64,000 nt of DNA, taken from the NCBI GenBank assembly GCA_951406725.2, contig OX597838.1, positions 32,116,001 to 32,180,000 of the forward strand, written 5' to 3'. This document shows positions 14,747-34,287 of this stretch, piece after piece. This DNA comes from Octopus vulgaris (lineage: Eukaryota). The notes under the pieces are model-generated. The model was not told the origin of the DNA, did not search any database, and worked only from the letters and a program-made list of their open reading frames with translations. The position numbers and the translations under genes are program-made. The first letter of the stretch is position 1. Each line of letters begins with the position of its first letter.

Positions 14747-14880
14747 ATGTCTCACGTAGAGAATGGATGGTTCCATGAAATACACAACTACATGGACCTG
14801 GGAATCAGTTTGGCAGTTGAAATTGAAGAAGTTCTCTTCCAGGGCAAGTCTGATTATCAAGACATCCAGGTATTCCGAAG
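14747..14880 (+). CDS. SRM: Spermidine synthase-like exon 1 ([11 protein letters not shown]...QDIQVFR)
   Basis: ATG at 14747 in context gtcATGt; donor AG|gtgagt. Confidence 0.9.
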
Positions 14881-32800: not shown

Positions 32801-34287
32801 ATATATGTATGTATGTATGTACGAGGCGCGTTCAATAAGTAATGCCCCTGACCCACTTCCCATAGCAGTAGAGCAACGAAACTTGGCACAGTTATTAGTC
32901 TTTTTCTACAAAGGAACCACCCAGAGTTACGCGTTTTTCCCATCGTTTGATGCAGCTCTGGAGACCGTTTTTGTCGAAGACCCCAGCTTGGTGCTCCAAC
33001 CACGACGTGACTTCAGAAATCAAGGCTGCATCATCTGGGAAACGCTTTCCTTTCAAAAACAATTTCATGGCTGGGAAGAGGTGAAAATCAGAGGGTGCAA
33101 GTCAGGAGAGATGGGGGGATGGGGGAGGAGTTCATATCCGCACGCCTGTTCTGATATGGCGACGCAAGTTGTGGACCGGAGCATTGTCCTGCAAGAGGAG
33201 GATGCCTTTGCTGATCTTGCCCCGCCTCTTGATTTTGAGAGCTTCTCTTAATTTCCTCAAAAGTGAAGCATAATAGGCTCCTGTAATTGTGGTACCCTTT
33301 GCCAGGAAATCTGTCATCACTACTCCGTCCTGGTCCCAGAAGACTGTGAGCATGACCTTGCCTTCTTTGGAGGAGGTGAGTCACGGTGCTTCCACTGCAT
33401 TGACTGGGCTTTGGTATCTGGATCATCGTGATGGACCCAGGTTTCATCATGTGTAATCAGTCTTTTGAAAAATTTTGACTCATCTTCTTGGCACATCTCC
33501 AAATTCATCCTCGAGCACTCGACGCGTTCTTGCTTCTGGAAAGGTGTGAGCAACCTGAGAATCCATCTGGCAGACACCTTTTGCATATGCAAATGGTCAT
33601 GAATGATAGTTTCCACAGACCCGGTACTAATCTTGACCTCATGGACTATTTGGCGAATAGTTATGCGTCGATCTTCCAAAATGGCAGCCTCAACTTGACG
33701 GACAGATGCTGCAGAAGGGGGGCGACCAGATCTGGGAGCTGTTTCCACAGAGTTCCGACCATGTTTGAATTCATGATGCCAGCGTTTTACAAGGTCATAT
33801 GATGGGGCATCATCACCATAAGTTACTTTCATTTCATCAAAAGTCTCCCGTGGTGTGCGTCCTTTCAAATACAAAAACCAGATCACTGCTCGACACTCAA
33901 CAGGCTCCATTTAACACTTGACTCGGTTCAAACACCTGTAAATCAGAAACCACAATTAGTTCAAAGCTGTAATTTGCCACTTAATCTATAGAGATATAAA
34001 TAATTGCACATGTAAAATTTCAGCTAGATCAGACAAGTGCAAGTGGGTCAGAGGCATTACTTATTGAACGTCCCTCGTACATATACATAGGCATGTAAAT
34101 GTGTTATACATCTATGTATGTGTGTGTGTGTATATATATATATAAATGTATATAAATACATGAATGTATATAAATTAATGTAAATAATAAATATACACCC
34201 ATGCATGATGCGAGATATAAAATATATGTTGATGAAACCACCTCACCTTTCTTTGTTTCTTCTCTATTTCAGAGACTTGGACTGTGA
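14747..34287 (+). CDS. SRM: Spermidine synthase family aminopropyltransferase, 8 coding exons, 289 aa (divergent)
   Basis: join(14747-14880,17255-17375,18946-19038,20218-20371,21842-21925,25327-25472,26769-26891,34273-34287). All introns are GT-AG, phases are consistent, and the total is 870 nt. Motifs [61 protein letters not shown]. Confidence 0.95.
14955..15355 (-). mobile_element. tRNA-derived SINE family B
   Basis: Reverse of the ggcgcaggagtggctgtgtggtaag...gaaacaagtaaaagagt family, with an internal (TA/CA) tract. Confidence 0.8.
16091..16500 (+). mobile_element. tRNA-derived SINE family B
   Basis: A-box tggctgtgtggtaag, B-box-like ggttcagtccc, tail aagagtaaagagt. Confidence 0.85.
17255..17375 (+). 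CDS. SRM: Spermidine synthase-like exon 2 ([27 protein letters not shown]...PNPKK)
   Basis: ttccag| ... AAG|gtaat; 121 nt. Confidence 0.95.
17438..17635. repeat. (GAT/GGT)n trinucleotide microsatellite
   Basis: Directly visible. Confidence 0.9.
17758..18150 (+). mobile_element. SINE family B (older copy)
   Basis: Diverged copy of 16091-16500. Confidence 0.75.
18946..19038 (+). CDS. SRM: Spermidine synthase-like exon 3 ([18 protein letters not shown]...CELDE)
   Basis: ccag| ... GAA|gtaagt; 93 nt; dcSAM-binding GGGDG motif. Confidence 0.95.
19860..20152 (-). mobile_element. Non-autonomous Helitron
   Basis: On - it starts TC (tctttatatataaa) and ends with the hairpin cccgagcaatgccggg plus CTAG, inserted between A and T. 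Confidence 0.75.
20218..20371 (+). CDS. SRM: Spermidine synthase-like exon 4 ([17 protein letters not shown]...[12 protein letters not shown])
   Basis: ttacag| ... G|gtaagt; 154 nt. Confidence 0.95.
20584..21080 (-). mobile_element. Two tandem RTE-tail repeats
   Basis: Two successive copies beginning at ~20584 and ~20875. Confidence 0.75.
21082..21505. repeat. Long diverged foldback palindrome (~200 bp arms)
   Basis: tattaatttgaaagaaacaagttccaagg...gataaattaag is mirrored by cttaatttatc...ccttggaacttgcctctttcatattaata. Confidence 0.85.
21842..21925 (+). CDS. SRM: Spermidine synthase-like exon 5 ([28 protein letters not shown])
   Basis: tttcag| ... G|gtaag; 84 nt. Confidence 0.95.
22205..22592 (-). 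mobile_element. SINE family B
   Basis: Reverse complement of 16091-16500. Confidence 0.85.
23275..23622 (-). mobile_element. SINE family B
   Basis: Reverse-oriented copy with an internal deletion. Confidence 0.8.
23629..23747 (-). pseudogene. Full-length 5S rRNA copy, probably a pseudogene
   Basis: - strand reads gtttactgccatatcactttgaaaacaccggttctcatctaatcactgaagttaagtaacgtagagcctagttagtacttagaagggtgaccgcttgggaaagctaggtgctgtaagcg: colinear with eukaryotic 5S over ~119 nt, with CpG-type substitutions and no T4 terminator. Confidence 0.85.
24660..25010 (-). mobile_element. SINE family B with a 31-bp internal duplication
   Basis: aaggcattggtcggcccggggctatagcag occurs twice at 24931-24990. 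Confidence 0.8.
25327..25472 (+). CDS. SRM: Spermidine synthase-like exon 6 ([11 protein letters not shown]...[19 protein letters not shown])
   Basis: ttatag| ... CAG|gtacgg; 146 nt. Confidence 0.95.
26769..26891 (+). CDS. SRM: Spermidine synthase-like exon 7 ([10 protein letters not shown]...[20 protein letters not shown])
   Basis: ttgcag| ... CAT|gtaagt; 123 nt. Confidence 0.95.
27150..27278. repeat. Foldback palindrome (~55 bp arms) between (TA)n tracts
   Basis: aagaattttttgcgtagtaagataaaaaaccaaggctgtgtagata / tatctacacagtcttggttttttatcttattatgcaaaaaattctt. Confidence 0.85.
27511..32821. repeat. 5.3 kb compound (TG/TA/TATG)n satellite with higher-order duplications
   Basis: Almost unbroken purine-pyrimidine alternation; rare landmark motifs recur several hundred bp apart. 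Confidence 0.95.
32822..34077 (-). mobile_element. Full-length but frameshifted mariner element (irritans-like)
   Basis: TIRs cgaggcgcgttcaataagtaatgcccctgacccactt / aagtgggtcagaggcattacttattgaacgtccctcg, TA on both sides. Transposase from ATG 33910: [30 protein letters not shown], split over three frames. Confidence 0.93.
34273..34287 (+). CDS. SRM: Spermidine synthase-like exon 8 (RLGL*)
   Basis: Strong acceptor (ctcac..ctttgtttcttctctatttcag), phase 0, stop after 4 codons, AATAAA ~100 nt downstream. Confidence 0.75.
   Translation, partial: RLGL

Follow-up and report, generated by a model that had tools for sequence, protein, structure and literature searches.

We analysed a 64,000-nucleotide stretch of the Octopus vulgaris genome (contig OX597838.1, positions 32,116,001 to 32,180,000, forward strand), called the window below. 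At 14747..34287 it carries a gene of the spermidine synthase (SRM) family that is, judged by its sequence, a conserved and neofunctionalised paralogue of aminopropyltransferase type. The protein keeps the catalytic site of SRM beside a rebuilt amine pocket, and may be a spermine synthase. A first-pass annotation of the window had proposed a new amine specificity; it had missed that an animal-type spermine synthase (SMS) was not found in the genome though octopus tissue is reported to be spermine-rich.

Gene structure and transcripts

The eight coding exons sum to 870 nt, giving 289 amino acids (aa) and a stop, and every intron is GT-AG. The protein is letter-identical to database protein P0121, filed as spermidine synthase of O. 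vulgaris and O. sinensis. Splice evidence comes from public contigs, whose runs have no RNA record yet whose joins skip the introns exactly. The first six exon junctions are bridged in all four runs, from four studies; at the junction of exons 7 and 8 a loose end in run X10 equals the end of exon 7, and contig numbering is continuous in runs X1 and X6. The intact eight-exon reading frame annotated earlier is thus borne out, and a pseudogene or mis-read frame is ruled out by the splicing and the identical database protein. Coding variants in the contigs are M105T (three of the four runs) and one silent change (one run). The features are as follows, in window coordinates and with the human SRM equivalents of residues in brackets.

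14373..14746, forward strand: transcribed 5′ leader, adjoining coding exon 1 (contigs from runs X4, X6 and X13 span 14373-14878, from X1 14425-14878)
14587..14778, forward strand: ATG-started upstream open reading frame of 63 codons, beginning inside the leader, out of frame with the main start and overlapping it
14747..14880, forward strand: coding exon 1 (aa 1-45), N-terminal hairpin; NYMDLG at 14786-14803 in place of the W28-P29 motif and one residue longer
17255..17375, forward strand: exon 2; Q59, Y68 and Q69 retained (Q70, Y79, Q80); W63
18946..19038, forward strand: exon 3; GGGDGGV, with D93 (D104) and V96 (V107); E113 (E124)
20218..20371, forward strand: exon 4; E143-E144 (G154-D155)
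Catalytic loop in exon 4: N161, D162, C163, T164, D165 (T172, catalytic D173, S174, S175, D176)
21842..21925, forward strand: exon 5, remainder of the gatekeeping loop; G170 (A181), Y174 (F185)
25327..25472, forward strand: exon 6; E197 (E208) retained; F201-D202-H203; M227; Y230 (Y241, retained); L231 (P242); G232
26769..26891, forward strand: exon 7, C-terminal helices
34273..34287, forward strand: coding part of exon 8, with stop
34288..34464, forward strand: 3′ untranslated region, with AATAAA at 34388-34393; contigs from four runs stop at 34390-34464

The leader also holds two tiny upstream reading frames, at 14394 and 14399. Upstream reading frames acting as brakes are frequent in polyamine genes; a Pfam search with the product of the 63-codon frame gave no match. 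Intron 7 contains a degenerate TG/TA microsatellite tract some 5.4 kb long (~27400-32850, GC skew 0.85) and, at 33323-33910 on the minus strand, a mariner-type transposase fragment (PF17906, E 1.7e-9) with related copies in transcript contigs.

Paralogues, catalytic site and amine pocket

The protein carries PF17284 and PF01564, the SRM domain pair, and is about 54% identical to human SRM (E 1e-104 against SRM, 1e-15 against animal SMS). Its AlphaFold model has a mean predicted local distance difference test score of 93.5 (76 for residues 11-20); so modelled, it matches human SRM (EC 2.5.1.16; PDB 2o06, 2o07) with Z 46.1 and a root-mean-square deviation of 1.2 Å over 287 residues of 2o06, and human spermine synthase with Z 24.5.

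The genome holds three SRM-type genes, on C12, C16 and C25 (the window gene lies on C25), with matching exon lengths and phases; the C12 and C16 genes were modelled with seven exons each. C12 is canonical (WPG, DSSDP, PTYPSG), shares its intron positions with the window gene and encodes a protein 51% identical to the window protein. C16 (C16:54476900-54499000, minus strand) diverges in another way (WSG, DSTDP, ATYACG; 54% identical): W28 is kept, with P29S and P242A, and octopod copies also turn PTY into ATY. Exon 6 also recurs as two inverted orphan duplicates on the minus strand, about 11-13 kb before the window, one (C25:32103929-32104565) of 654 nt including part of intron 6 and 89% identical, the other (32102870-32103005) of 136 nt and 98.5% identical; no further exon stands beside them within the 50 kb examined.

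Orthologues of the window gene were found in O. bimaculoides (one difference), in Argonauta hians (75% identical) and as three proteins from transcript assemblies (78-80%). These form a clade, C, with support of 100/100 and a long stem (0.46-0.62 changes per column), in which the three transcript-assembly rows branch outside Octopus and Argonauta; they are likely from squid or cuttlefish, because a cuttlefish protein occupies the corresponding branch in the C16 clade. The C16 type forms a second lineage, B, with members in cuttlefish, oysters, abalone, Gigantopelta, Solemya and a chiton. Following a quick tree, a more careful one of 36 selected rows joined B and C (91/93) and placed coleoid B as sister to C (89/88), both unstarred; its model was without mixtures, and long-branch pull on B and C is possible. 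Grouping C with the coleoid canonical copies was rejected (p-AU 0.0015), and by the orthology test the window gene stands apart from canonical animal SRM. The gene thus likely traces back to a second, older SRM lineage found across molluscs, and the canonical gene is not its immediate parent. Its description as a lineage-specific paralogue survives in part: a canonical SRM does exist elsewhere in the genome and its changes are conserved in orthologues, but it probably arose by way of the mollusc-wide B lineage. A fast-evolving sole SRM is ruled out by the C12 copy. Among the best 150 representatives at 50% identity none is more than 56% identical to the window protein; N172 occurs in four and L242 in two, and none has both.

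Residues for decarboxylated S-adenosylmethionine (dcSAM) and catalysis are retained: Q38, Q59, Y68, Q69, D93, E113, D162, D165 and Y230, equivalent to Q49, Q70, Y79, Q80, D104, E124, D173, D176 and Y241 when read against human SRM and a 302-aa rodent SRM. This confirms the nine residues listed earlier as kept, and the equivalents of E23, D176, Q206 and E208 are present as well. Exceptions are D155, which is E in three octopod rows, and Y241F in the Argonauta row; all other catalytic residues are conserved among the orthologues. The letters of thermospermine-type (ACL5) enzymes, GGGEGA with Asp at the ribose position, are not present, the window protein having GGGDGG and E113. Nor are the changes D103I, Q79T and V106T that accompany putrescine N-methyltransferase (window D93, Q69 and V96), so the earlier assignment to the aminopropyltransferases over the methyltransferases appears sound.

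The pocket is another matter. Both canonical SRM signatures, the DSSDP-x-GPA gatekeeper loop and PTYP, are lacking. Across 110 canonical rows, 124 columns are at least 90% conserved; the window protein departs at 22 of these, against a canonical median of 2 (the only canonical row to reach 22 is a plant protein of poor prediction, and the next highest has 13). Nineteen of the 124 differ in all six rows of clade C, which amount to about four independent lineages, and at 16 of the 19 the six rows share one new residue, compared with 69 of 155 variable columns; such sharing points to new function in place of decay. The changes cluster in the hairpin floor (W28, P29 and Q31, with the one-residue insertion), in the region of the gate and catalytic Asp (T172N, S174C, S175T, A181G, F185Y), and at I238M and P242L. 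All 107 canonical rows covering the site have W28, as do all nine B rows, and none of the six C rows has it; the residue opposite it (M16 or D17) varies by aligner. P242 we take to have a role in the putrescine pocket. W28 is reported to shut the putrescine cavity against longer amines (PMC12812037; PMC6514230), and the D173-F185 loop to set amine selectivity (PMC6356823).

All six motif changes in the first-pass annotation are present, but three carry little weight. In EEG, G154 varies among canonical SRMs and D155E is confined to octopods (three of the six rows); the W of TEWDE, at R74, a position variable in canonical SRMs, is L in the three outer C rows; and the D of QWFD (H213D) is common to B paralogues and some canonical rows. 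On the cofactor side, I125L is found in all six C rows. A suggestion that adenosine-to-inosine editing restores G154 was not upheld: the codon has no A>G in the contigs of four runs (minor variants dropped), and E stands there in five of the six orthologue rows. The window gene is neither the sole SRM (C12 is canonical) nor a bearer of changes common to ordinary orthologues, two of the points on which its novelty had been said to hang.

Spermine synthase and the acceptor amine

The spermine synthase of animals is a separate protein of bacterial derivation (PMC12803844). A pattern scan gave four loci in metagenomes, and one of these encodes a complete SMS of 366 aa (E 2e-105 against its human counterpart). 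The catalytic part of this protein, searched against the octopus genome at E up to 10, yielded four candidates and no match among them; a starfish SMS yielded no candidate; and an annelid SMS gave two matches among five candidates, which were the exons encoding GGGDG in the C16 and C25 genes (E 5-10). Four SMS motif patterns applied to the same genome gave four matches for one pattern, with no exon recognisable by eye, and none for the other three. As control, a cnidarian SRM gave 25 matches among 33 candidates; exons from the three genes and the orphan copies made up 22 of these matches (43-81% identity). A search with PF17950 (SpmSyn_N) left one of seven candidates, under the cut-off (E 0.77) and with stops, a weak result since a true SMS also missed that model. 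The best 120 of 527 SMS homologues name annelids, echinoderms, cnidarians and chordates but no mollusc or arthropod; since arthropods are equally missing and about two dozen rows carry no species name, the gap is not evidence of loss. An oyster annotation indicates that SMS is kept in bivalves (PMC13745860). Octopus flesh is listed with 31.7 mg/kg spermine, 3.6 spermidine and 1.1 putrescine, and the same table gives spermine of 9.5 mg/kg for squid, 2.1 for canned crab, 0.4 for shrimp and 42 for clam (PMC5807879, Table 2).

We therefore favour, at about even odds (roughly 0.5), a reading of the window gene as a spermine synthase that re-evolved from an SRM duplicate and stands in for the lost animal enzyme. 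Its history would run from an early mollusc duplication, founding B, through a second duplication of B in the coleoid line, giving C, to loss of the bacterial-derived enzyme. That octopus, and probably coleoids in general, lost the bacterial-derived SMS and rebuilt spermine synthesis from a duplicate of a mollusc-specific SRM paralogue, converging on residues of yeast Spe4 and of animal SMS, with the Argonauta copy perhaps moving toward thermospermine, is put forward a little more tentatively. Spermidine is the likeliest acceptor if the enzyme fills the place of the missing SMS. dcSAM would bind as in SRM, and its aminopropyl group would pass to spermidine; D162 would deprotonate the aminobutyl amine, as D173 does for putrescine, while D165 and Y230 would keep the butyl part in the position that putrescine takes in SRM. 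Loss of the W28 floor and of P242 would make room for the aminopropyl tail, and the new D17 may bind the amine at its end. The longer acceptor proposed by the first-pass annotation fits this scheme; the undescribed pathway that it expected does not, the product probably being ordinary spermine from a new enzyme.

Conversion of SRM to spermine synthase has been validated in yeasts and plants (PMC12803844), and GGGDGG with E124 suits spermine rather than thermospermine synthases, with listed exceptions (PMC11107197). The window gene resembles yeast Spe4 and plant spermine synthase (SPMS) in being an SRM duplicate beside a kept canonical copy, in having the size and fold of SRM, in retaining D173 and D176, and in its hairpin changes. 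A likely Spe4 orthologue, P0312, changes W28, P29, I238 (to M, as in the window protein) and P242 and keeps DSSDP; it is likely of Spe4 type by cluster and length, as its cluster contains a Millerozyma protein of 314 aa, which is also the length of the spermine synthase validated in Debaryomyces (PMC12803844). The window protein differs from P0312 in its independent origin, 44% identity and different new residues, and from plant SPMS in that the latter keeps the W and inserts about 15-20 residues (PMC6514230; PMC12803844). From its likely parent B, in which P242 is also missing from most rows and H213 is D, it differs at W28, T172 and A181, all kept in B.

With animal SMS (EC 2.5.1.22; PDB 3c6k, 3c6m) the window enzyme would have its reaction in common. 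Both proteins carry N just before the catalytic Asp, T two residues further on from it, and L next to the pocket Tyr on its C-terminal side. The likeness is partial: the SMS loop is NDLT in 117 of 120 homologues and that of the window NDCT, and the residue after the pocket Tyr, in PTYLG of the window, is in SMS L in 55, M in 44-46 and H in 12-14, with P never among the commonest. Of the 13 usable changed columns, four match the SMS consensus (I37, N172, T175, L242) against 1.2 expected under BLOSUM62 (p ~0.02), in a post hoc test whose p is rough, with six columns unusable and three hand-mapped after the catalytic Asp. SMS is a separate lineage of about 360-390 aa with an N-terminal domain like S-adenosylmethionine decarboxylase, and nothing in the 289-aa window protein aligned to its first ~120 residues; the window protein also keeps D176 and is without the Glu of PSY-x-E.

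Several points weigh against replacement of SMS by the window gene. That Glu, near-invariant after PSY-x in animal SMS and presumably a binder of the amine, is G in the window protein, and absence of SMS rests on one assembly, possibly incomplete. The Argonauta orthologue has Y241F, as in a coral thermospermine synthase (PMC12803844). The C16 pocket is altered too (P29S, P242A), and since plant spermine synthases keep the tryptophan, B could itself be the spermine synthase. Divergent SRM paralogues coexist with annotated SMS in a starfish and in the oyster Saccostrea cucullata (PMC13745860), so remodelling of the pocket does not by itself imply replacement. P0312 is not named Spe4 by any source. 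The octopus spermine figure does not distinguish thermospermine, is given without a species and may be partly dietary (PMC5807879), and the activity assigned to the window enzyme is a prediction.

Some of these points would suit an aminopropyltransferase making thermospermine, norspermine, aminopropyl-cadaverine, aminopropyl-agmatine or longer chains, with spermine supplied by the C16 paralogue or by diet. The resemblance of the B-type paralogue to P0312 at P29 and P242, the Argonauta Y241F and the four altered gatekeeper positions, in a loop said to set selectivity (PMC6356823), speak for it. We consider it rather unlikely, given that GGGDGG and E124 are not thermospermine-synthase letters, that D176 is kept when plant thermospermine synthase turns it away from the substrate (PMC6514230), and that oyster B stands beside an annotated SMS and so was probably not kept for spermine. 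A putrescine-using spermidine synthase, tissue-specific or kinetically altered, would agree with the retained catalytic residues and E23, D176, Q206 and E208 equivalents, with the close modelled superposition (1.2 Å, Z 46) on human SRM and with the database names; it is improbable with a canonical SRM at C12, with the W28 floor and P242 gone from all six rows and with new residues fixed at 16 of 19 changed positions.

Action on a non-polyamine acceptor, such as a biogenic amine or specialised metabolite, or N-methylation of a polyamine with S-adenosylmethionine, would account for substitutions close to the cofactor (I125L throughout clade C, D155E among octopods). Coca enzymes of the SRM family methylate spermidine, one of them keeping SRM activity (PMC9894180), so the kept aspartate may not exclude methylation. 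To this we give little credence, as none of D103I, Q79T and V106T, which convert SRM to putrescine N-methyltransferase (PMC3725402), is present. Finally, the protein could be a weakly active partner subunit, binding another paralogue and modulating its activity, as plant spermidine and spermine synthases form heteromers (PMC6514230) and the three octopus paralogues share a dimer-forming fold. Conservation of the catalytic residues in the orthologues, save the one Y241F, would be unexpected for a dead subunit, and this we regard as very improbable.

Significance and related observations

The open-access literature on spermidine and spermine synthase in octopus, cephalopods and molluscs yielded no study of these paralogues. 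An SRM transcript is raised in the oviducal glands of mated Octopus maya, the copy not being stated (PMC8976471). A December 2025 survey describes SRM-derived spermine synthases only in yeasts and plants, and its main text does not mention molluscs (PMC12803844); replacement by such enzymes is known from those two groups, and we found none reported for animals. In the legend to Figure S1 of that survey one accession is given for two coral proteins, and the two Pocillopora labels seem to have been exchanged when compared with the Orbicella pair.

If the spermine synthase reading is right, octopus would add an independent origin of the enzyme inside animals, together with an unreported loss of SMS in the invertebrates with the largest nervous systems; SMS defects cause human neurological disease. 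If one of the rivals holds, the enzyme would make an amine not yet assigned in animals. Together the canonical (A), B and C paralogues offer a small natural set in which to learn what few residues set amine length, which motifs do not yet predict among aminopropyltransferases (PMC11107197, by the same group as PMC12803844).

Strongly divergent SRM-like proteins (P0318, P0298, P0345, P0310 and P0367) were also seen, from a starfish, two mussels, an assembly (with GGGNG) and Caenorhabditis nigoni (with PTYTSG); invertebrates may hold several further aminopropyltransferase paralogues.

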